Shown piece by piece: positions 1 through 62,628 of a stretch of DNA of 62,628 nt. Positions within the stretch are counted from its first letter, which is position 1, and each line of letters starts with the position of its first letter. Below the pieces are notes generated by a model. It had not been told where the DNA came from. It did not search any database and saw only the letters and a program-made list of their open reading frames with translations. Origin of the DNA: Tubiluchus corallicola (taxonomy: Eukaryota; Animalia; Priapulida); NCBI GenBank assembly GCA_030141605.1, contig JAQGDQ010001102.1, forward strand, positions 1 to 62,628, written 5' to 3'. The translations under genes and the position numbers were made by a program.

Positions 1-1226
1 TACCACCAAGTATAAGTAGTAAACGAATTATGGTTAAAATGTAAGCCGGTTCAGAACATGAGTATATAGTGCTTTCAAATTTAGATGAAATCTGTAATTT
101 TCCCAATTTTTTTAGAGCTACGTATTTTAGATTGACATGACGCATTTGCCTTTTTAGGAAGTACACAGAGTTAAAAATATTTTTTACAAGTGGTTGAACG
201 TCATAATTAAAGTTAAAATGATTAAAATCAGGCCAATTTTTAAGTTTAAAAATATGATAATTCTTAATTATTACAGGTAAGTTGGTATTGCCATTGTACA
301 GCTGTAAGATGCATATCGAAGCAATAAATAAAATTTTATGGGAATTACATTTAGCTTTTACACATATGAAAATTTTTGAAATATAAATTAAGATCTGTAT
401 TACAGTACTTATTAAGTCAAGAGTATAAAGCACAAAATCAGGATTAAGACAACATGGGTCCACTAGTAAAATATATGAAGGTATTACGCTTAAATTTATC
501 AGCACCATAATTAATTTACTATTGTGTGACTTAGAAAGAGTAACGTAAATTATGAGAGTTAGACTGATTGCCAATAGGCTAATGTTAACGATAGGCCTAT
601 AACATGCACACATTTCATCATTAGTGGGTACATTATATGAAGTACAGGCGGCACTAAATAGTAGCATAAATAGCAAAAACGTTATTTTTAAACTGAACAT
701 AAAACGTCAATACCAATGAAATTCAATCGGGAAACTCGAAATAAATTTGTTTGCTACAACGGGAGCTTCTTAGATACAATTTTAATTACAGGAAACTGTT
801 TAAGAACTTTTTACAGCGTTGCTAATGAGCTCATTCAATTGTTCTTTCTTTTCAGCGTCACAATTTGATGCAGGCGAGCCAGTGGTTGGGGTGCTAATCT
901 GTTTTGGTTGTTTGTGTAGTACCTGTGCGTATGTGCTACCTGTGCGTATGTGCTAATGTGTTGTTTATTATTCACGAGTAGGTCTTGATCAGTGGTTTTG
1001 TTGTTTGTTGTAGTGTAACAATCCTGATCAGGTACCGGCGTTGGCAGCAAAGCCGGTCTTCTCAATGTTTGCTGTAGTATAAAATGATCATTCATTTCCT
1101 TGCTTTGTGTGATTGACGCTGTTTGTCCTATAATGGGCTTTACTGGCCTACTATTATACCGTTTAGGCGCAATCCACCTTTTATTGTCACTGGTCAAGCA
1201 GTGAGAAATTACCTGGGTTAATTTAT
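1..1226 (-). mobile_element. Second, inverted copy of the same LINE (ORF1 tail + ORF2 N-terminus), running off the window start
   Basis: 1-963 is the reverse complement of 1227-2174. I counted 14 substitutions and no indels or stops over 1-700 vs 1475-2174. There is a private 17-bp duplication near 920-955. Confidence 0.95.
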
Positions 1227-1388
1227 CAACACAATAGCACATACGCACAGGTACTACACAAACAACCAAAACAGATTAGCACCTCAACCACTGGCTCGCC
1301 TGCATCAAATTGTGACGCTGAAAAAAAAGAACAATTGAATGAGCTCATTAGCAACGCTGTGAAAAAGTTCTCAAACAGTTTTCTGTAA
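1227..1388 (+). pseudogene. Probable C-terminal remnant of LINE ORF1
   Basis: Open frame QHNSTYAQVLHKQPKQ...KKEQLNELISNAVKKFSNSFL* ends 86 nt before the ORF2 ATG; the frame continues further upstream in the inverted copy (964-1226, - strand). Confidence 0.55.
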
Positions 1389-2104
1389 TTAAAATTGTAT
1401 CTAAGAAGCTCCCGTTGTAGCAAACAAATTTATTTCGAGTTTCCCGATTGAATTTTATTGGTATTGACGTTTTTATGTTCAGTTTAAAAATAACGTTTTT
1501 GCTATTTATGCTACTATTTAGTGCCGCCTGTACTTCATATAATGTACCCACTAATGATGAAATGTGTGCATGTTATAGGCCTATCGTCCACATTAGCCTG
1601 TTGGCAATCAGTCTAACTAGCATAATTTACGTTACTCTTTCTAAGTCACACAATAGTAAATTAATTATGGTGCTGATAAATTTAAGCGTAATACCTTCAT
1701 ATATTTTACTAGTGGACCCATGTTGCCTTAATCCTGATTTTGTGCTTTATACTCTTGACTTAATAAGTACTGTAATACAGATCTTAATTTATATTTCAAA
1801 AATTTTCATATGTGTAAAAGCTAAATGTAATTCCCATAAAATTTTATTTATTGCTTCGATATGCATCTTACAGCTGTACAATGGCAACACCAACTTACCT
1901 GTAATAATTAAGAATTATCATATTTTTAAACTTAAAAATTGGCCTGATTTTAATAATTTTAACTTTAATTATGACGTTCAACCACTTGTAAAAAATATTT
2001 TTAACTCTGTGTACTTCCTGAAAAGGCAAATGTGTCATGTCAATCTAAAATACGTAGCTCTAAAAAAATTGGAAAAATTACAGATTTCATCTAAATTTGA
2101 AAGC

Positions 2105-2194
2105 ACTCTATACTCATGTTCTGAACTGGCATACATTTTAACCATAATTCGTTTACTACTTATACTTGGTGGTATCGAAACTAACCCTGGACCC
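2105..2194 (+). other. 2A-like (StopGo / ribosome-skipping) peptide, ...IIRLLLILGGIETNPG|P
   Basis: Codons 2168-2194 read GGIETNPGP, preceded by a hydrophobic Leu-rich run. Matches D(V/I)ExNPGP except D->G, and lies just upstream of the APE domain. Confidence 0.75.
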
Positions 2195-2203
2195 ATTTTG
2201 CCA

Positions 2204-2252
2204 AATAATAATAATAATAATGACAATAACAATAACACCAACAATAATAATA
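2204..2252 (+). repeat. (AAT/AAC)n low-complexity tract encoding poly-Asn
   Basis: NNNNNNDNNNNTNNNN directly after the 2A proline. Confidence 0.85.
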
Positions 2253-5200
2253 CCAGTGATGAGCTAAAAAAATTCATGATTACTTATAAAAAGAACATCA
2301 AATTTCTAAATATAAATATTCAAAGTCTCATCAAAAAACACTGGCTGCTGAAAGATACAATTCATGCCACCGAAAAATCTGATTGTAGGCATAACAGAAA
2401 CTTGGCTACATAAACAAAGACTTAGCAACACTATAGAATTACCTAATCACACATTAACAAGAAGAGATAGATGTAAAAATAAGAAAGGTGGAGGGGTTGC
2501 GATGTATATACCTTCACACCTGAGACCACAAGAAATGAAAGGCATCAGAACTGGCAAGATTGAATCTGTTTGGTGCAGCATTGAGAACTATGTAATAGGA
2601 ACCATATATAGACCACCCAATCTCAAACACAAAACATTTTTCAAATACTTTAGTGAAGAACTAGAATGCAGTGTTTTCGAAAATAAAAAAGTTCTTATAA
2701 TGGGCGATTTCAACCTTGATATTTTAGCTACAAACACACTGGCATACAAAACATACACAGAGCTCTTAAAACAATATAATGTCCACATACTTAACAACAA
2801 TAAACCTACTCGAATTTCTAAAACATCAGCCACAGTAATCGACCATTTCATTTCGAATAGTAACAATAATTTCGTAGCATATGATACTTTCCCGTGTGAT
2901 TATTCAGATCATCATTTCACAATATTAGTAGATAAAATGACCCCACAGCATAACAATAACCAAAATTCAGTCTGGCACTTAATGAGAGACTACGCCCAAT
3001 ACAACAGACATTCATACTTAATCGACTTAGCAAAAATGAACTGGACCTCCATATATATGACTGATAAAATAGATACACAAGTTAATATTCTGATATATAA
3101 TGTCGAATATTGCGTTAATGTACATGCACCATATAAAAACGTAAAGCAAATCCCACAACAAAGCAAACTCAATAACAAAAGTACCTGGACAACACCTGAA
3201 CTTGACAAACTAAGAATAGCGAAAAACAAAATGTATAATATATGGGAGAAGAACAAAACTAAAAACAATCATAACAATTATAAAAAAAAGAGAAATCAAT
3301 TTAATAATCTTAATAAATGCTTGAAAAATAAACATATACAACAACAATGTAAAAACGCAACAAATACTAAAGAAAAATGGAAAATTATTAACAATGTAAT
3401 AAATAAATGCCGTATCAAACTAACGCGTGTTGACGAAATTAAGATCAACAACACTGTTACTACAAAACCCAAAGATATTGCCAACGCGCTAAATGCAATA
3501 TTCCTGAATCTTGGAAATTTTAAGGGAGTGGCTTCCCATATTAGCAATAATATAATTAATAAATTAAAAAACAAATCGTCTAACACAGTATTCTCATTCA
3601 AAAGCGTCACAGTAGGAGAAATTAATGACATATTAAATAACCCAAGTTCCAACAAAGGGAGTGGACCATCAGATATTCCTATCAAAATTCTAAAAGATAG
3701 TGCATCTGTAATTGCTAATCAGATAATTATGAGAGGCGAATTTCCAACGGTATGTAAAATGGCAAACGTGACTCCAATCCATAAAAAAGATCCAAAATGT
3801 GATCCCATGAATTAGCGCCCAATTTCCGTAATCCATTGTTTTGGCAAAATTTGGGAAAGGATAATTTACGATCAGATAAATTCATATGTAAATAAACATG
3901 AACTTTTATCAAAACATCAGTTTGGCTTCTGTAAACACCATTCAATCATTGACGCCCTAATACACACAACAGAAAATTGGAGACATAGTTTAGACAACAA
4001 GCAATACATTTTAGCAGCATTTTTGGATTTAAGTAAAGCATTCGATAGCATTAATCACGAACTACTTTACGATCATTTAAAACAAATCGGATTAGATTCG
4101 ATATCGTTAAAACTTATACAAAATTATCTCAAAGATAGACAACAACGAGTAAAGTTAGATACAACCAACTTTTCTGACTGGGCCACGTTAAACAGAGGTA
4201 TACCGCAAGGAACACTACTAGGTCCGTTATTATTTTGCCTATATATAAACAACATATCCAGTGTATTAAAACACTCACAAATAACGCAATACACTGATGA
4301 CACTACAATCTACATAGCCCATGAAAATGTCCAAACTGCAAAAAATTATTTAGAAGAAGATATAAAAAATATAAATATGGCATTTATTCATTACAAGCTA
4401 AAAATGAATAATGACAAAACAGAATTCATGATACTGTCACCCTCATTAAATACTAATGATGCATCATCAACCACTTTGACAATAGATAATGCTGTAATCA
4501 AACAAACTAACAATGTTAAATTCCTGGGCATACAGGCAGACAATAATCTTTCATGGGATGAACAGTTTAATAACATATACACAAAAATGGCATCTAGCAC
4601 ATCATATCTCCGACAAGTTAAAGGGCAACTAACAAAGGAAACTAAACACTAATATGTAAAACTTTAGTTCAACCACACTTCTTATATGGATGTACGCTAC
4701 TTCAAAAAACCAAAAGAGAAAATTACTTAAAATTAAATCCCCTTCAAAACTATGCGTTGAGATTGACAGCTGGATACCCATACAAACATAAGGCAGGTAG
4801 ACAAAAATTCAAAGCTTCAACAACTAACCTGAGAAAAACTTTAAAATTCCCAATCATTGAAGCACACAAAGAATATTTTACTCTGCTTTTTATATTTAAA
4901 TACATTAACAACATCAGCAAACCATTCCAGAATAACAGATTTATCTTTTTTCCAAATCCTATCGTTAATTCCAGAACAAGCAATCTAAAACAAATTAGGA
5001 CAAATACCCACTATGGAACGAACTCTGTAATCAAACAAGCAATTTTACTTTGGAATTCTCTACCATTACAGGTTAAACAAATCAAGTCCCTATCAGCATT
5101 TAAAACAAAATTAAAATCACTAATATTAACCAGATATGAAATACCATCACACCAGTACGACAACATACACACTAATTCAGAATTCATATACCCACGGCCA

Positions 5201-6189
5201 TATTAATTAAATCATAGTTTTTTTTTCATTTTTTGTGCATAGTTGTAAATATGTTTGATTTTATTCGTCATTACTGCACAGTAGTTTAGATTGCACTGAC
5301 GCATTTGCCTTCAGCAGTGTAAGTTTTTATTAACTAATACTGATTGATTATCTCTGTAAAGTTTTTATCAGTGATTATCAATATATTTTAATGGCAAATA
5401 AAGATTATTATATATATATATAAGCATTAAATAACCGTAGTATTAACACGGCTTAATTTCTTGTAAGTTATTACATTCTAGTGTTGAAGAAAAGCATGCA
5501 TTGCTTGTCGTTTTCTACTTTTAATATCAACTTCGGTATTTAGAAAAGTGCCCATATACTTGCACGTTTTCCCAGATTGATTATTTTAGGATTCATCTTT
5601 CAAAAAAGTATCAGGTTTCAATATGGGAAATCATAGCAACGCAGTCCGTTTGTAAGGCGCAGAGTACGCCACTAGACGAAGCAGGACACTAAAGTGCATA
5701 AAATGCTAATTCTGTCGAGAATCGAGAATTATGACATAATAAAACATAAAACTAAATTTGTTTTAGAAAAAAATAAATTTATAATAATGAGGGATAGTTC
5801 TCGACAATTTACAAATGTATTTTTACAATAATATTATCATTATTATTAGTGCCATTAATATCATCATATCATTAAACAAAGTATCTACTATCTAGTGCTT
5901 TGTAGAGAGAAACTATGCACACAGTTATTACAGAAATAATTGCAAATTTAAAAAATGAAACTTTTACTTAGTAGAAAACAATTATTTGTCCAAGAGGTAG
6001 CGAAATGGATCACCTGTCTGTGAAGCAAGGCAAAATAAAAAATGATATACCTTAAGCAAATGTTGGGATCGCCTAAAAAGCGGGCTTATTTTACTTCAAA
6101 AAGACTAATATCGAAGCCGAAATTCATATTGGGCCGTTCTACTAGCTCAGAATAAGGTTATTTTATTTTACCAGATGTGTAATAAATTA

Positions 6190-10491: not shown

Positions 10492-13400
10492 GTATGTATC
10501 TAAAGTGGCAATTTTTGGTAACTAACTTCATATTTATTTAGTGTACAGACTTGTTCCAGCATCGTCAGTGCACAAACAAAATAACCAATTTGATGATGAA
10601 GTAATAATTGGTGCGTTAAATAAGGAAGATGTTAACTTTAATTTGAAATACTGTACTTTTAGTGGCTGTAGAATTTTTTCGAAGTTCATCAGAATATTAG
10701 ATACTGTTTCAGTATCTTGTTATGACATATGTTTTTGTAGGAAAACTGTTGTTTCAAACTTGAAACTAATGTAAAAGTTTCGATTAATATCTTGCTTGAT
10801 ATATCATTAAGGTTCATGTATCGGGACTCGAGACAATAAGTTGCAAAATTGAGACTTAGTCTTGACATGAGACTTGAACTTTTGTAGGACTTGGCTTGAT
10901 TTGACACTTGACCAAGTGACATGACTCAATTGGTTTGCCAGTCTTTACTAGCTGTTTAAGAGTTTATATCAAAAAAAGTACACCAGTTTTTAATCTTTTA
11001 GAATCATATACTAATTAACGGGATAAGTAATGCTTCTGTTATTGAATTACAAATTTTGTGTAATGTTAGAAGTGCAGCCCATAATTTACCTTCATACTGT
11101 CTTATCTTATAGTCAGTGTAATAGTAGTGGAATGTCTATTCTTGGTTAACGTGTAAAGACAAGTGACAAATTTTGAGGTGATGTAGGCCACACATTTACA
11201 GTTACGTAATTATTGAGATATGTGATTTGCAGATGCAATGCATTTGTTTAGCTAATAATTTAGAAGTTCATAAATAGCACTAAATTTGATTGCACAAGTG
11301 TTTGACACTACTCTATGCTCTTTTGGTTCTGGTCATTTAAATGTTCTTGTGTGCCGTTTGTTTCTGTCGTAGGACGTACTCTATTTAGACTGTAAATGTA
11401 GTGTAGTTTGACATGTAAAAGGAATTATCAAATAATCTTTTTGTTTTTAGAATTACATAATTATAGTTAGTACTGAATGTGTCTGCGGCTGATAATCATA
11501 AATATTTTTATATAGGTTAGTAGTTCTGTATGTCATGTAAAGAAGAAAAGTCCAACAACACGTGCCAGTCTCTTAAAAACTTCTGCTTGTGTAAATGATA
11601 GACACCGATATAATTTACATTTTTGATGTCTTAATCTTTTGCAATTAATTTTAATAAACTTTTAATTTACCTGTTGAAGTTGATTTTAATTTTTCTAATG
11701 TCTTTGTAGAGTCATCATATGCAGAAGAAAAGTCCATGCCGTGTAAGAAGTTCAGCAGAATTGGCTGAAGTAAAATCTTGTAACCCACCTACTGATGAAA
11801 GAAATGATTCTTCACATTCACAGCCGCCAGCTGTAGGTGTGGCAACATCTTGTCACTCACCATTGCCCAAGAAACGCAAACCACAGACACCAAAAAATGA
11901 TAGACAAATAAGTAACATGTTGACAGAATTGTCAACACCTAAGGATATTTCACAATCTCCTGATGTTGCACCAAGAACTTCAGTAACCAACTCACAGTGT
12001 ACACCGAGTACACCCAGAAGAAAAGTTTTGGCAGAAGTTGGTATGCTGAGAAACAAGATTCAGTCTCCTAATATAAAACCAAGAACATTAAGAAATTTAT
12101 GCAAACCAGTGAGTTCAGAAAAAGGACACAGTCCAGTTGTTACACCAAGAAAGTCAAAAAGTAATCTTAAAGCTAACGTTGGTATAGAAGCTTCTTGTTC
12201 TACTAGGAATGTGCATGTGCAAGGCAGTAAGCATAATTCACAGAATACTCCTAAAAATAGGCTCAACCTAGACAAACCTTTGTCTCGTGGTTGTATGAAC
12301 TCACAAGAAGACAATAAGTGTCAAGTAAGTTTATTTTTTGTTTCTTTATTGAAGTAACAGTTCGGCCTTATCATTGTTTTTTCAGAAAAGTTCAAGGTGC
12401 ACGTTGTAGAATGATATTGCACTCGATTTGTAAAATAATCAACTACATTCAAACTTCTTTATACCACCTGCTTTGGGACAAGAAAAAAGTTGGCGTTATA
12501 GCAAGTTTGGTATTATAACAAGGTGTGTTAAATTTTGGCAAAAATAAATCACAAAACAGTCAGATGAGTGCACAGATTCGAGTCCTCAATTTTCGCTCTA
12601 AAGGTTAATGAATTAAAGAAAATTATTAAATTAATCATTTGTGAACTGAATTAATGACTCACTCAGAATCAGTCATCTTTATTAAAAACCATTTTTTACA
12701 TAATAAACGTGTTCTGTACTCAACTACATATATAAAAGACTGTAGGTCAACTGCTTCATTAAATATGTCTGTATATAAAAAAAGGTTAAGTCATAACTAC
12801 GAATTTCTTACTGATGAAAAAAAGCCACACGTTTTCTTGTCAGTTTCCGTTATGACTACATGCCATTATGTGGTGCATTCATTTTGATTATGCAATGTGC
12901 ATTATAGCTTGCAAGCATTAAAAATGTGATGACGTGCATTATTTTATACAACACGCGACGTTTAGCCAGTGACTGCAACTCGGCTGGGCATGTAGCAACC
13001 TCGTACTGTGGGCATTATATCAAGAAGCTGCTGGCATTATTTGAGAGACTGAGACTGCTGGTGATATTTTCTCAATAACACCTATATTAACTTGCCTGGC
13101 AGATGGTGGGTAATGGGGTGGCACATTTATATATAAAATATTACCTATATTAATTTGCCTGGCAGATGGTGGGTAATGCGGTGGCACATTTATATATAAA
13201 ATATTACCTATATTAATTTGCCTGGCAGATGGCAGGTAATGGGGTGGAGCGTTTATATACCTGGCGGTATACGGTATATATAACGGGTTATTTTTATATA
13301 CAGTCGAATACAACCGTTTTGTTCCTGGCCATTTTGTAAGCGGTAGACGAGTTTGGCTTTATAACGGGGAGTGGTGTAATGAGGCTTGACTGAAATTATA

Positions 13401-28014: not shown

Positions 28015-31000
28015 TGTGTGCATCTTTACGAAGTTAAATTCAGAGCTAACAGAGTTAACTGTTTTCACTGAGAAGACATGTTTAGATCACAAATACAAAC
28101 TTCATGCATCATAAATTAAACCAGTCATACTACACAAACCATAAAAAACTATGCAAATTAAATTGGCATGATTAACTAAGTTCATATGAGCACCAATAGT
28201 TTTGACAAGCAGCCTAAACAAATTTTGACTACAGTATATACAGGAAGTTGTAATGTCATCAAGGAATATTGTAATAAAAATTAGCAGTGAGACAAAATTA
28301 AAATATGGAAACATAACAGAATTTAGCACGTGAAAACATATAGAAAGTATTTATATCGTGAGCTTGGCGTTCATGCAACCGAAAATATAAAAATCTGTAA
28401 CATAATACAAACAAAATCAACAAAATATTTGGCATGGGCATATTGCTGTTAATTTTATGAGCACTAGGACTGGTATGCAACTGAACTATAATTATTTTGG
28501 TTGGTAAACATTAATTTACTAGTTAAAAAGTTTCAGATTCATTCCTTTACATTTTGTTGTGGCACAAATGGATATTGAGTACCTATCACTAAGTTGGATG
28601 CTAAAACATTTTCTAAACTAATTTCAAATGTTAGGAGAGTGATTTTGCTTCTCCACATAGCCCATGGATTTTAGTTTTTGAACAGAATTTATGGCAAACT
28701 TTATATGAGTCATATATTTTTCTCATCGTAATTTTTCCATACCTAGTCCACAATTACTTATAGCTAAGCTGTTTTTTGCACTGTCGTGCATGATACAAAA
28801 TAGTTCAATTATGTGTTGCAAGACTCATTGCGAATAGTTTGTTAGTAGCTGTAAATCCAATATCACTTGCAGAATTGATGTTTTTCTTGAATCATTAATC
28901 TTGTCTCGGTCCTCTCTTCTAGTAAATTTGAATATTGTAGGCATTGGACTAGTCTGGCTTTGGCAAGCGAGGAGCTGTGCTGATATTGTTAAGGTTCATT
29001 TGTACTCCTGTTGCTTTAATTTGACTTAATTTGAACACCCTGTCATTTTGTCGATGGTACTAGAGAATGTATATTTGAATGTAGATCGATATACATTAAT
29101 AAATGGGGATTTTCTGTGCAAGATATAAGTGAAAACAATGTAGATACATTGAGTAAAGTTCGATTATATGTCACAGAGCTGTTGCAAGGAAAGATAAGCA
29201 GACAGTGAAGTGAAAAAGGGAATGTGTATAAAGTGAAAAAATACGTGTTTTTGATTTTGCAAACTGGCAATTTTTATTGAAGTCAGTTTGCTCGCTTATT
29301 TGGTGAAGAGGATCTTGTGTATCCACGGCACCCAACGTAATAAACTGGTGTTGAATTAAATGTTATGGTCGGAAGGTGGGTGATGTTGCATTAGGAAACA
29401 TGTCTGCCTTCATCAAAGAAGAAATTGCTGATGATTTTAACAATTTTTTACTGCTGCATCGGCCGCAGTTGGAATTATCCGGTGTCCCAAAACACTATTG
29501 GGCATCCCTGTTACACAAACTTGAAAATGATGTATTCGACGCTGGTAACGCCTTCAGCATGATGCAACTAGAAGATGCAAATGGGATTTTTATGGGTTGG
29601 AAAACTGTAGTAAGTGGTGATAATGTTGTAAATGTTGAAGATCCGCTGCAAATTTATTTAGTTGACCATGCTTGGACATACACAGTGGACTATGCAAAAA
29701 AGCAATTAATCACCTGTTCTACTTTACTTCGGCGTATGGCATTATTGATGAACGTGAATGCTGATAATGTTGATACAAAAGAATTAGTTGAAACTGTATT
29801 ATCTGAAATGTGGAAATTCAATCAGACGTACCATCTCGGAAACCTTGAGGCACATGCTGAAATGCGTCTTCCCGTTTGGTATGTGATGGATGAGTTTGGG
29901 TCACGAATTCAACACTCTGATTTGCCTAATGCCAAAATGGTACCATTTTACTACATGCCGCAGCAGAGTGGTTTTACATTATTGTGGCCTATCAAGAACA
30001 TTTCACCTGGGGAAGAGGTCACAAGAGATTATGTTCAGAATTGTTTTGAACCACCCTTAAGAAAAGCTCGCTTGCTCCCTTGGTGTAAGACTGATTTAAC
30101 TTCTGTTAGTGCAAAACAAAAAGAGCCCGAAGAGTCTTACTATATGATTTCTCGTCAAAATGAGACATTGCCAGATACTTCTTGCCTTAAATTAAGAAGC
30201 TTGGAGATGAACAAAGAGCTGTATAAAATCTATACAGACTATGAAGTGTTACATAAGTTTTTAAACCATCCACAGTTTAGTTTTGTTGAGCATTTGGAAG
30301 AAGCTGATGTTTTGTGGATTCGCAGTCACTTCACTGAGTATAAGACATTCAGTCAAGCAAGTCCTGCTAAGTTTGTAAATCAGTTTCCCTATGAAAGCAT
30401 CCTTACTGTTAAGGATCTACTAGCCTGTGTTTGCAGGCGTGCTGTAAAAACTGAAGACTGTTTTGATGAGGATACTCTGGAGTGTATCCCAGCCTGGCTA
30501 CCTGTAACATACAATATTTCTACTGAACTTTTGCAGTTTATTTCGTATTATCAACAAAGGCAGAGGAGAGGATTAGACAATACATGGATCTGTAAGCCGT
30601 GGAATCTTGCTAGAGGTTTAGGTATAGTAATCTCTAATAATGTGAACTGTATTGTGAGACTACCTGAAGGTGGACCAATGATTGCTTGCAAGTATATTGA
30701 AGACCCTGTCTTATTTAAACGAGATGATGTAGGCAAGGTCAAATTTGACATTCGTTTTGTCGTGCTGCTTGTTTCAGTCAGACCACTGGTTGTTTACTTG
30801 TACAAAAACTTCTGGTTAAGATTTGCTAACAAGGAATTTTCCTTGAATGATTTAGATGACTATGAAAAGCATTTTACTGTCATGAATTACAAGAAAACTG
30901 TTGACTTAAAACAAATGTATTGTGATGATTTCATTGTTGAATTTGAAAAACAAAATCCAAGTCAAAAGTGGAGAGAGATCATGGGTGAAATCTGCTCAGT

Positions 31001-34000
31001 GATAAAATCCATGTTTGAGTGTGCAACTGTAGTACCGCCTCCTCGTGGGATAGCTCATTCTCCTCAGTCCAGAGCCATTTATGGAATTGATATGATGTTA
31101 GCTTGGAAGACTAAGAACAATGTTAGGTGTATACAGCCAATGTTGTGTGAAGTGAATTACATGCCAGACTGTGAAAGAGCTTGTCTTTATTATCCACAAT
31201 TCTTCAATGATGTTTTTAAAGTCTTGTTCTTGAATGAGCGGAATACAGAAAGTGTAATTGAACTGTAGTTTGATGTCTATTCATTGAACCTAGAATGTAA
31301 ACTTTCAGAACTTTGTACAAAGCAGTTTGGTTGTTACTTTCCAAAAATTATTTTAGTAAAACCAGTTTTTATTTTTCAATTACGAGTGACTAAAAGTTAA
31401 TGTAAAAATATTATTTGCTATTTAGTTATCTTTGATATCTTTGTTCAGATCATATTTAACTGCTGTTATATAACCAGTTACCATATTAAAATTGATTTGT
31501 TGCAAAATTAAAGAATTGTATGAGGTACATTGTGATAAAAATGTTTTAAACAATAAATGTGTGTAGTGTACGGGCTATGGAATTTTAAAATTTAAAGTTC
31601 GCTTGTTTTATGTTTTTGCTAATAAATCATACTGTAACAAGATTTACATATTTCCCTTTTCTGTGGAAAATGTGATACCGACTAGGCAATTAAAAATCGT
31701 TTTTTTATTTAAATAAATAAGTAAGTAAGATAATAAGTAAGAAAAGTAAAAATAATTACAAGTTATTATGCATTGAATTTTGAACAATTGGCACTTCCAG
31801 TTAGTTGATTTCGGCCTTGTGGTTTACAAATGTGTTCTAGTTCAATTATTTTTCACTTATGATAGATTTTCGCAACATTTGCATAGCTGGGACCTATATT
31901 TCAAATAAAGGGCTTCAATGAGGGGCCCCTATTTCAGATAGAGGGCCTCAAGTAAGAGATTCGTTATCTCAAATGAGGAGCCACTTTAAATTTGGATTTT
32001 CAGATTTTATGCCCACCAATTTTATTTTAAGTTATCTGAATTATTCAGCAGCCCAAACTCGAGGAGCCTTACACTGAGCCTATACCAGCCTACAGGGTAA
32101 TCCAACCCTGAACAGAATAAGTTTTTTCCATATTTTTATTTTAATTTTACTAAATATTACGTTTTGAAATTTTGTGTTGTGTAGTAATTTTAAATCGCTG
32201 TTGTAGTATTAACTGTATATATTTTTTCGTACAATGTCAAGCACATATTTGTATGGATTTTGCATTATAAATAAATAAGTAAATAAACTTAAACTTATTA
32301 TAAAATTTTTTCTCAGTTTTGAATGGTAATTTATTTTTTCAAAGGACTTGTACTCTATGCAGCTGTTATTCATTTCTTTTAATGCTCTTTCATTATTCTT
32401 TTATTTAATGCAATAACAAGAAAGAAGCAAGAAATTTAATTTTTTACGCACACAGTTTTGCTTGAAGCAGTTGTTGCATATTACAATGTAAATTTATACT
32501 TATATATATACTATTTGCAATGTTTTTTTCTTATTTTACATTGCAGCATTGCAGAAAGAGATTGAAGTCTTGAGAGCTATGTTGGGTGAAGTGCATTGTG
32601 ATGTAGACACTGCTACTGTTTCTGAAATTACTGAGTTAAATCAACAGTTAGCAAATTCCGAACGTCTCATGTCTGAAGTGACACGAACATGGCAAGAAAA
32701 GTTAACACAAGCTGAGAAAAGAAAAGCCATTGAATCTTCTGAGCTAGCAGTATGCCATGAAGTTTTTTCTCAAGTGTTTTCTTGTTTGTTCTTACAATAA
32801 TAATAGTTTTCCGTTTCCTTTAATTATAGTAAGCAGTCTTACTGGTTTTACTTTTTTTGTTTTGAGGTGGTTTCAGCTCTTCAGTATAACTGAGTTTTAA
32901 TCTATTTGGGATAATATGCTAGGTCATCGTGCGTTGCTCATTGCCACTGTAAATGAGTGATAGTAGAATTCGCTGACTTGTCTTTTCTTTTTATTGCATT
33001 GTTGCTCTCTTTGTTCATTGAATACTGTAACTTTAAGTAACTGAATAACAGAGTGTGTAGTAGGAGAGTACAGTTGGAGACCATAATTATAATGAAAACT
33101 GGCTACTTCTAAATACAACAATTCATTCATTTTTTTATTTAGTCACTGCTAACATTGTTATAATGTAATTATTGGAAAATTCATAGGCCACCGAGTGGAT
33201 TGAAGAGTATGCCACTCTTGAAAAATGTTCGTTTTTCTTTTACAGAACATTGGCATAGCAGTAAAAGTAGATAGCAGATTGCCATATCTAGTGAATTTAA
33301 ATGAGGATGCACAGTTATCAGAGACATTACTGTATTTGTTGAAAGATGGTGAAACAACTGTTGGTAGAATGAGTAGCTGTTCTAAACATGATATCAAGCT
33401 CTGCGGTGCACTTATAGCTGATAATCATTGGTGATTATTCATAGTACTGAATTTAAGTATATATTAATTTTACTTTTTTGTGTCTGGTTGGATTTATTTA
33501 TTTATATGTGATCTCTGTGGCTACAGCTCCAACTGAAGGTTTATTTTTTAAATCAGAGTGAAAAACCAATAAAAATGGCTCTTTGGTCCATTTTTGCGCA
33601 AATTTTGTACTCCTTAGTTTGCGAGAACGGAAAACCAGTAATGGTTTGAATATTCGTACGTGGGTGGGTGCACTAGAGCTTTTTAGAGTTCGTGAGAGGC
33701 CAGTGGGTTCCTACGGTCAGCATTTTTCCAAACCAACTACCCATTTTTTGAGATTTTGACAAAACAACATGTAGAACAAGTAGTCTTGTGGCCTCTTAGT
33801 AGGTTTTTTAGTTCTTTTGAAAAAGGAGGAACTGGGCTACACGATGACATGAGTTTCTTTTACGAGTGCTTCCAATAGAATGGGAAAATTCTAAGATCTT
33901 TCTTATGAGTTTCTCATGGGGAAAGTATAGGACACAAAGTTATTGTTAGTGATGTCGCCCATTATATTCTGCCTACAGACTTTGCTTTAGTATAATAATT

Positions 34001-61472: not shown

Positions 61473-62628
61473 TCAAAAAAGTTTCAGATGTTCTGACAAA
61501 AATTCCGTGCATCACTTTTCCTTGCGTTCTCACTGTGAAATGGGCCTTAAGTAAAGAGAATGCACATCAATTTGATGATTAAGGATTAAATTATTGCCTC
61601 AGCCAGGGAGCCAAGTTATTTAGAACATATCACGCTATGATCAGCTGATGTCTGACCTACTTAAGAGGACACGTCACAATTATAGATCGTAGCTCCTATG
61701 CACGGAGATCCAGTGCGCATTAAGAGATTAAACAAAAGGAGTTGGATCCGGCAATGTGCAATTTGTGAAAAAAAGACTCGTCGGTTTGGCATGTCCTCTC
61801 AGCTGTTCACAACGCAGTACGTCACGAGCCAATACACCGACAGCGGCATTAAAAACAATAAACAGCAGCTATAAACTCTTACTAACTCACTTTCTTTTAC
61901 TCCTTAGTCTTCAAGGAACTTATAAGCAGCAGCAGTGTGGAAATTCAAGTGTCGAGAAAATGACAATCAACAATGTAGACTTACTTAAATTCATTATATA
62001 TTTATGTGTGTCTACTATTTATATCATAATCAACATTTTTTACCTTACCATCAACTGCTGCAGCCGCTAAACCTTAGTTTTACAAAAGGCGAGTACACAC
62101 TATCTGGGTTAGTTTTACAAAAGGCGAGGATACACTATCTGGGTCAGTTTTACAAAAGGCGAGGATACACTATCTGGGTCAGTTTTACAAAAGGCGAGGA
62201 TACACTATCTGGGTTAGTTAGAGTTTATAGCTGCTGTTTATTGTTTTTAATGCTGTTGCCGGTATTGCTCGTGACGTACTGCTGGGTGTTGTGAATAGCT
62301 GAGAGGACATGCCAAACCAACGAGTCTTTTTTCACAAATTGCACATTGCCGGATCCAACTCCTTTTTGTTTAATCTCTTAATGCGCACTGGATCTCTCTG
62401 CATAGGAGCTACGATCTATAATTGTGACGTGTCCTCTTAAGTAGGTCAGACATCAGCTGATCATAGCGTGATATGTTCTAAATAACTTGGCTCCCTGGCT
62501 GAGGCAATAATTTAATCCTTAATCATCAAATTGATGTGCATTCTCTTTACTTAAGGCCCATTTCACAGTGAGAACGCAAGGAAAAGTGATGCACGGACTT
62601 TTTGTCAGAACATCTGAAACTTTTTTGA
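61473..62628. mobile_element. Long foldback / palindromic non-autonomous element in an SLC22 intron (runs off the window end)
   Basis: 61473-~61887 is the near-perfect reverse complement of ~62213-62628. Confidence 0.9.
62076..62219. repeat. 35-bp minisatellite x4 in the loop of the foldback
   Basis: agttttacaaaaggcgaggatacactatctgggt(t/c) at 62076, 62111, 62146, 62181. Confidence 0.93.

Follow-up and report, generated by a model that had tools for sequence, protein, structure and literature searches.

Many invertebrate LINEs keep a 2A peptide in front of their endonuclease; the reason for this, and the function of the peptide encoded upstream of the 2A, have been in question since the work of Odon et al. 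(2013). The matter is raised again at the start of the window, i.e. the whole stretch of 62,628 nucleotides of Tubiluchus corallicola DNA analysed here, where the ORF2 of a LINE opens with a leader of 240 codons that ends in a 2A-type motif. The original prediction was that this leader is a separate membrane protein which the 2A peptide would release from the endonuclease and reverse transcriptase (EN-RT). Its premise, that 2A-like peptides occur ahead of the APE domain in some non-LTR elements, is already known from the accessible parts of the literature (Odon et al. 2013, PMC3708506; Luke et al. 2013, PMC3894237), and cargo domains preceding the 2A have been described as well (PMC13405545). 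A signal or transmembrane (TM) leader in a LINE ORF2 was not found described in the open literature (Repbase and closed journals being outside this scope), nor in the accessible parts of recent 2A surveys. As set out below, the layout is common to other 2A-bearing LINEs, and the window leader is an exceptionally long case of it.

Structure of the element and its two copies

At the start of the window, one LINE is present twice in head-to-head orientation, as copy A on the forward strand (1235–5420, 5'-truncated at 1235) and as the inverted copy B on the reverse strand (1–1234); the two are 97.8% identical over 940 nt. Copy A comprises, all on the forward strand, the 3' end of a probable ORF1 (1235–1388, stop codon TAA at 1386–1388), an ATG-free spacer of 86 nt (1389–1474), the leader (1475–2194), an in-frame (AAT/AAC)n microsatellite that encodes a poly-Asn linker (2199–2255), the APE endonuclease (2276–2930; Pfam Exo_endo_phos_2, E 1e-6) with an in-frame Met at 2276 just upstream, the reverse transcriptase (RT, 3816–4535; Pfam RVT_1, E 5e-35), and the C-terminal region of ORF2 (stop at about 5204–5206) followed by the 3' UTR, an AATAAA signal and an (ATT)n/(AT)n tail (4650–5420). 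In copy B, what is left of ORF1 (about 1232 to 790) precedes the spacer and the leader, which begins at 700 and exits the window at position 1, at leader codon 233; since contigs of the family carry other sequence past 1232, this copy is 5'-truncated there. The ORF1 frame of copy B holds about 100 more open codons upstream of a 17-nt duplication that is absent from the contigs of sequencing runs X1, X3 and X4. As the Pfam search with the probable ORF1 was without match, this label is given by position alone.

With APE followed by RT in ORF2, the element is an APE-type non-LTR retrotransposon (LINE), and we take it to resemble the CR1 group (CR1/L2/Crack). It has the simple-repeat 3' tail (ATT/AT) and the frequent 5' truncation of LINEs: Truncated 5' ends were found, and read depth climbs steeply toward the 3' end of the element, as expected for 5'-truncated LINE copies. 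Copy A is dead, with a frameshift near 2373, stops at 3813–3815 and 4650 and a later change of frame. The extra base near 2373 is absent from the contigs covering this site in all four runs, and the APE frame of the family is therefore continuous there. The proposal of one ORF from leader to EN-RT thus describes the family but not copy A, whose frame is broken; the continuity between leader and APE is directly seen in copy A only, the AAT repeat at 2199–2255 being bridged by no contig.

The junction at 1232–1235 joins head-to-head 5'-truncated copies that share at least 940 nt of content (window 1–2174). The start of copy A is exactly the 17-nt unit (920–936) that is duplicated in copy B; this points to a template switch within a single insertion event. 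A-type alleles were present in run X1 and B-type alleles in X2–X4, i.e. separately. The depth of run X1 rises about fourfold across 2199–2280, which includes the AAT/AAC microsatellite; 5' truncation or other 5' ends may therefore cluster in this interval.

Elsewhere in the window, an uninterrupted, intronless ORF of 622 aa with SET_TTL and TTL domains (29400–31268, forward strand), presumably TTLL12-like by its domain order, is possibly a retrocopy or a compact gene. A low-complexity ORF of 212 aa without Pfam match (11719–12357, forward strand) is perhaps one exon of a host gene. At 61473–62628, inverted arms of 265 nt (99% identity) flank a 35-nt tandem repeat; the end of the window cuts this element, which looks like a non-autonomous DNA transposon.

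The open frame of the leader

The frame opened by ATG 1475, the first ATG after the ORF1 stop, runs through ...LLLILGGIETNPG/P, the P being codon 240 that ends at 2194, and through the poly-Asn linker into the start of APE. Given the base composition of the leader, a frame of 240 codons should contain about 17 stops, and the chance of having none is about 2e-8; none of 20,000 shuffles of the leader stayed open, and the other five frames hold 9–31 stops. The open frame is far beyond chance. Between copies A and B the leader differs by 14 substitutions in 700 nt, 6 of them synonymous, with no stop or indel, exactly as counted by hand in the original prediction. The indels that it had noted in the adjacent DNA are one-base indels, located in ORF1 and in the run of T immediately upstream of ATG 1475, and none lies inside the leader in either copy. 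Its statement that the frame is open in both copies stands for these 700 nt, but not for the 2A core, which is unseen in copy B because this copy ends at codon 233.

ATG 1475 lies in a weak context, and the in-frame Met at 2276 is a possible direct start of APE-RT. In the four runs, which derive from at most two samples, contigs over the leader show several variant forms; depth ratios give roughly ten copies in X2–X4 and about two in X1, a rough estimate in which depth does not equal copy number.

Hydrophobic segments and predicted topology

The signal-like start, the hydrophobic segments with Cys-containing loops, the basic tail and the NPG/P motif that had been reported were all recovered, five hydrophobic stretches being counted with the signal-like start included. 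Judged by hydropathy alone, residues 1–19 (1475–1531, forward strand) form a signal-peptide-like N-terminus; three segments of TM length (residues 36–56, 63–81 and 90–114) and a short fourth (123–135) follow at 1580–1879, and the mean Kyte-Doolittle values of the five stretches are 1.8–2.4. The basic tail (residues 136–215; 1880–2119) contains 11 K/R and 4 D/E. The loops are alternately acidic with Cys and basic, the Cys residues lying in the predicted lumenal loops, and K/R make up 5 of 14 residues in the two predicted inside loops, compared with 1 of 24 in the two outside loops (p 0.018, with loop borders drawn by eye). These charges fit a signal peptide and three TM helices that leave the C-terminus in the cytosol. 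In this arrangement the basic tail and the 2A would be cytosolic, provided that the fifth stretch of 13 residues does not span the membrane.

The original prediction had cautioned that AT-rich DNA readily translates into hydrophobic strings. The leader contains 38% T versus 25% in APE-RT (0.42 versus 0.30 in RT at third codon positions). Of 3000 random open frames with the leader's composition, 165 (5.5%) had at least four hydrophobic segments, each counted as 19 residues at hydropathy 1.6; the number was 322 of 3000 for residue shuffles and 0 of 3000 at the composition of APE-RT. Relative to the leader's own composition, the hydrophobicity of residues 1–19 is not significant (P 0.14–0.22). 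The features of an SRP-targeted multi-pass protein, i.e. N-terminal stretch, TM-length segments and positive-inside pattern, are present, and taken alone this leader is only marginally more hydrophobic than its composition predicts.

A single-sequence AlphaFold2 model shows the segments as helical at low confidence (pLDDT 45.5, pTM 0.29); with this uninformative model, the structural search by Foldseek against the PDB, which had been suggested as a check of the membrane module, returned 55 matches, none of them at E <= 0.001, and is likewise uninformative. Retroviral and errantivirus Env proteins and viroporins likewise have a signal-like start, hydrophobic helices and a basic cytosolic tail. 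In contrast to these, the window leader lacks a large ectodomain, a furin-type site (by eye), homology and a fold match; with predicted lumenal loops of 8–16 residues, which are too small for an envelope-type ectodomain, the leader does not qualify as an env or fusogen.

The 2A-type motif

The 2A/StopGo-like peptide (2120–2194, forward strand) consists of a Leu/Ile-rich helix followed by GGIETNPG/P. In its motif G-I-E-T-N-P-G-P, a G stands where the classic motif has D; the peptide consequently deviates from the class A core D(V/I)ExNPGP of Odon et al. but conforms to the expanded core (D/G/C/N)(V/I)ExNPGP with a Leu-rich helix and a G before it. The published core allows G in place of D (PMC12846837), and in the accessible parts of two papers G is given as equally frequent with D there among viruses and as functional (PMC12846837, PMC6249498). 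Among 15 GGIE peptides in a human-cell screen, 9 were classed as skipping, 2 as fall-off and 4 as non-skipping (PMC13405545, supplement 3, as far as accessible); the three judged closest to that of the leader belong to the fall-off (2) and non-skipping (1) classes, one D/G peptide pair skipped with D only, and 59% of the tested ORF2p 2A peptides lowered protein abundance. Entry into the ER can, moreover, inhibit 2A skipping for some upstream sequences (PMC2978324). By analogy with these peptides, the motif of the leader is likely to give mixed outcomes rather than an established clean release.

Searches for relatives of the leader

Among 1.84 billion representative proteins the leader had one match, P0121, which covers the 2A alone, and no homologue was found among longer proteins. 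An Atlas search with the whole leader or with residues 1–140 gave no usable match; the leader belongs to no Pfam family and had no relative in metagenome or viral contigs. The collecting search for 2A-bearing ORF2s returned the query alone.

Among the best 120 of 143 ORF2 relatives, six carry a 2A-type motif. In a quick tree of 120 rows, the RT of the window forms a clade with P0001 and P0031 as sole other members (SH-aLRT 99); both have a 2A and a hydrophobic leader, of 107 and 91 aa, respectively. No relative of P0031 was found in genome contigs.

Recurrence in other 2A-bearing LINEs

The scan for canonical 2A cores in 6 of 64 parts of a metagenome collection yielded 120 loci (121 sites). 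A LINE ORF2 lies downstream of 42 sites, of which 16 have a Met-started leader of at least 60 aa; the other 26 LINE-confirmed sites were left out as broken, cut off, short or Met-less. The 16 leaders represent 9 lineages, one cluster having been divided by eye; of these lineages, L084/L092, which would count as a miss, and L108, which would count as a hit, were dropped as cut off. Addition of P0001, P0031 and P0116 (P0057, P0074 and P0102 being excluded as short or partial) resulted in 10 lineages with leaders of 81–127 aa.

A hydrophobic segment within the first 50 residues, defined as 11 residues with a mean hydropathy of at least 2.2 by a cut-off set after seeing the values, was present in 9 of these 10 independent 2A-bearing lineages versus 0 of 108 Met-started ORF2s without 2A (6 of 114 having been dropped as Met-less). 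The count of 9 exceeds residue shuffles (2.6 of 10 expected, P 1e-5); against a base-composition null, 6 of 7 were seen versus 2.7 expected (P 0.006). A further lineage is represented by L127, one of 8 loci from a scan of genome contigs for G-type motifs, which combines a G-type 2A, APE and a hydrophobic leader.

In a family of 11 loci, the leader gave a dN/dS of 0.34 and its first 22 residues one of 0.43, compared with 0.14 for the 2A and 0.13 for APE; a pair from a second family gave 0.34 (leader), 0.05 and 0.13, and a third pair was saturated, these pairwise estimates being mutually non-independent. For 9 loci of the first family (two near-duplicates dropped) the pN/pS of the leader was 0.59 (95% interval 0.51–0.67), and residues 3–16 are still hydrophobic at 28% identity. 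As the leaders of the relatives are not alignable to that of the window, their dN/dS does not transfer to it. The window leader is the longest Met-started and most hydrophobic LINE leader of those compared; the comparison leaders from DNA loci contain at most two hydrophobic segments of 19 residues. A long ORF upstream was present in 2 of 8 loci checked (L003 and L043).

Several further arrangements were observed in the course of these scans. In eight of the 26 sites left out (L004, L024, L051, L061, L072, L073, L081 and L116), a Met-less open stretch of 85–117 codons precedes the 2A, possibly as a result of decayed starts or of non-AUG initiation. A multi-copy family (L012, L017, L048, L066, L075, L076, L082, L083, L105 and L115) contains a conserved, Met-started ORF of about 122 aa that ends in a canonical 2A, with a stop usually 15–55 codons later; no APE or RT was found downstream of it, which makes it an orphan unit of leader and 2A. 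The motif M-x(5-9)-(W/H/Y)R-x-x-IG starts the unrelated 2A leaders L003, L043, L124, L128, P0102, P0116 and P0121 and is absent from the window leader. L124 and L128, both on contigs of bacterial metagenome-assembled genomes, show a leader, a G-type 2A, a coiled-coil ORF1-like region and, about 1 kb further on, APE/RT; here the 2A lies ahead of the ORF1-like region, and host DNA was probably binned into a symbiont genome.

Selection, variants and a second subfamily

The 6 synonymous changes among 14 between copies A and B are not significant (p 0.06–0.18), in line with the earlier reservation that 14 changes are too few. This comparison was dropped as a test of selection; besides the small number of changes, the copies are not clearly independent, the start of copy A being the duplicated unit of copy B. 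Among the 40 of 127 variant rows listed, 34 lie in the leader, with 12 synonymous and 21 non-synonymous changes and 1 stop (p 0.04–0.23 for 12 of 34 at a transition bias of 1–4, the observed bias being about 2.5). Of the listed leader variants at 25% of depth or more, 7 of 24 are synonymous (p 0.24–0.54). In residues 1–140 the share is 9 of 20 (p 0.02–0.08; the split was chosen after seeing the data), and in residues 141–240 it is 3 of 14 listed variants, which is near neutral. Purifying selection on the leader in this family is not significant.

Stops and frameshifts across copies had been named as observations that would speak against a function. They do occur: Of the 12 leader indels listed among at least 31, 10 are frame-breaking. 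Nearly all of these have a low share of depth, those at 1771 and 2062 reaching about 8–22% in some runs. Low-share indels of this kind are as expected of decaying copies and neither refute nor support a function. LINE copies decay neutrally after insertion, and for this reason only a comparison between subfamilies can decide on selection in the leader. A second subfamily, present in all four runs, joins at 2023: The end of the leader, approximately 57 codons, and the 2A are common to both, and upstream of this part the second subfamily differs, falling below the 80% cut-off. Its 30 letters upstream of 2023 comprise nine whole codons that are stop-free in the ORF2 frame (by eye), and its two versions differ there at two third positions only, a hint that the ORF2 frame is kept.

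Comparison with known systems

The 2A-bearing LINEs of Odon et al. (2013, PMC3708506) and Luke et al. (2013, PMC3894237) possess the same Leu-rich helix and 2A, in frame ahead of APE/RT. According to the accessible parts of these papers, the 2A of the LINEs of Odon et al. lies about 40–80 aa from the N-terminus of ORF2, compared with 240 aa in the window, and most of these LINEs are without ORF1, whereas the window element has a probable ORF1 like the exceptions CR1-26_BF, CR1-53_BF and CR1-1_LG; signal or TM features upstream of the 2A are not mentioned in these parts. The ORF2p cargo described in PMC13405545 (Josephin/OTU deubiquitinases and repeat domains) is likewise a sizeable module before the 2A, in one frame with APE-RT. 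However, this cargo consists of recognisable soluble folds, in contrast to the membrane-like leader without homologue found, and in the accessible text of that study the word "transmembrane" occurs solely in a reference title.

Two destinations from one ORF, by ER targeting and skipping, are known from the 2A-like signals of sea urchin NLR proteins (Roulston et al. 2016, PMC4981915); there, however, the 26-aa 2A is itself the signal and the genes are host genes, whereas in the window a retrotransposon carries its signal-like stretch 200 residues from the 2A. In yeast, a signal-2A-GFP construct delivered the upstream product to the ER and the downstream product to the cytosol (PMC2978324). For yeast Ty1, Doh et al. 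(2014, PMC3945221) showed experimentally that RNA and Gag are targeted to the ER in dependence on SRP, and that translation of the RNA on SRP nucleates the sites of Ty1 assembly. We infer a delivery of the RNA to the ER for the window LINE; unlike the latter, Ty1 is an LTR element without 2A or dedicated leader.

Role of the leader

In the interpretation that we favour, and to which we give an even chance of being correct, the leader is a likely ER-targeting, dose-limiting device and not a conserved accessory protein. Ribosomes would reinitiate after ORF1 at ATG 1475; the N-terminal stretch might bind SRP, whereupon the complex of ribosome and RNA would dock on the ER or the outer nuclear membrane. 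According to hydropathy and charge, three helices would insert and the basic tail would stay cytosolic. At NPG/P, if the motif behaves like the tested look-alikes, some ribosomes would skip and set free APE-RT beside its own RNA, while others would fall off or read through to give a membrane-tethered enzyme. The released leader would be largely disposable, and for this reason its length and sequence could drift as long as the open frame, the hydrophobic start and the 2A are kept. The bolder generalisation, namely that 2A-bearing LINEs are a broad undescribed class replicating on the ER or nuclear envelope via such leaders and that in this family the leader has become a three-pass membrane protein which, set free by the 2A, delivers or tethers the RNP as an accessory factor beyond the usual two-protein LINE model, appears unlikely to us at present.

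The excess of T, which is found at third as well as at second codon positions, would also suit a different origin, one that we think improbable but worth its weight: A T-rich spacer was absorbed into ORF2 and kept stop-free for the passage of ribosomes, the 2A cuts off a useless appendage, and the hydrophobicity is a by-product of composition. Segments not clearly above the composition null (P 0.055–0.11; 0.14–0.22), shared variants near the neutral expectation and the lack of a detected homologue or fold are compatible with such an origin. Against it, an open frame of 240 codons is hard to gain from non-coding DNA, the loop charges alternate as in membrane proteins, and in other lineages the hydrophobic start beats both nulls and the leaders are under purifying selection.

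A stable membrane accessory protein of 239 residues, acting as a pore, a nuclear-envelope tether, a vesicle-packaging factor or an antagonist of host defence, would account for the length of the leader, about twice that of any of the 10 comparison leaders (81–127 aa), for its higher number of hydrophobic segments, for the coherent topology with Cys in predicted lumenal loops and for the mild enrichment of synonymous changes in residues 1–140, and the deubiquitinases ahead of the 2A (PMC13405545) provide a precedent for folded cargo. Nevertheless, the leader has no relative beyond its 2A in the 1.84 billion representatives or in the other collections, its model (pLDDT 45; weak, from a single sequence) has no Foldseek match at E <= 0.001, its lumenal loops are too small for an envelope-type ectodomain, and the sister subfamily is too divergent upstream of 2023 at the 80% cut-off. 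We consider such a protein distinctly unlikely, and the env- or viroporin-like accessory factor of the original prediction found no backing, with neither homologue, fold match, large ectodomain nor significant purifying selection. Least probable of all, and by our estimate quite doubtful, is an attenuator. Most ribosomes would stall at the motif and drop off there, or the fusion would be degraded at the ER, and the little APE-RT produced would come from Met 2276, directly before APE, or from rare resumption. Down-regulation by 2A was proposed by Odon et al. (PMC3708506) and Luke et al. (PMC3894237), and the fall-off or non-skipping of the most similar peptides and the reduced protein abundance with 59% of those tested agree with it (PMC13405545, accessible parts), but 9 of 15 GGIE-type peptides skip, and the attenuator does not account for a hydrophobic segment that recurs across lineages at the N-terminus, 200 residues away from the 2A.

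For the 2A-bearing LINEs as a group, the recurring signal-like leader under purifying selection suggests that ORF2 is translated at the ER and that the 2A frees or rations the enzyme there. If true, this ER-targeting role of the leader would bring a membrane stage into the life cycle of LINEs, for which the window element, with its 240 aa, several TM-like segments and an ORF1 also present, would be a useful extreme case.
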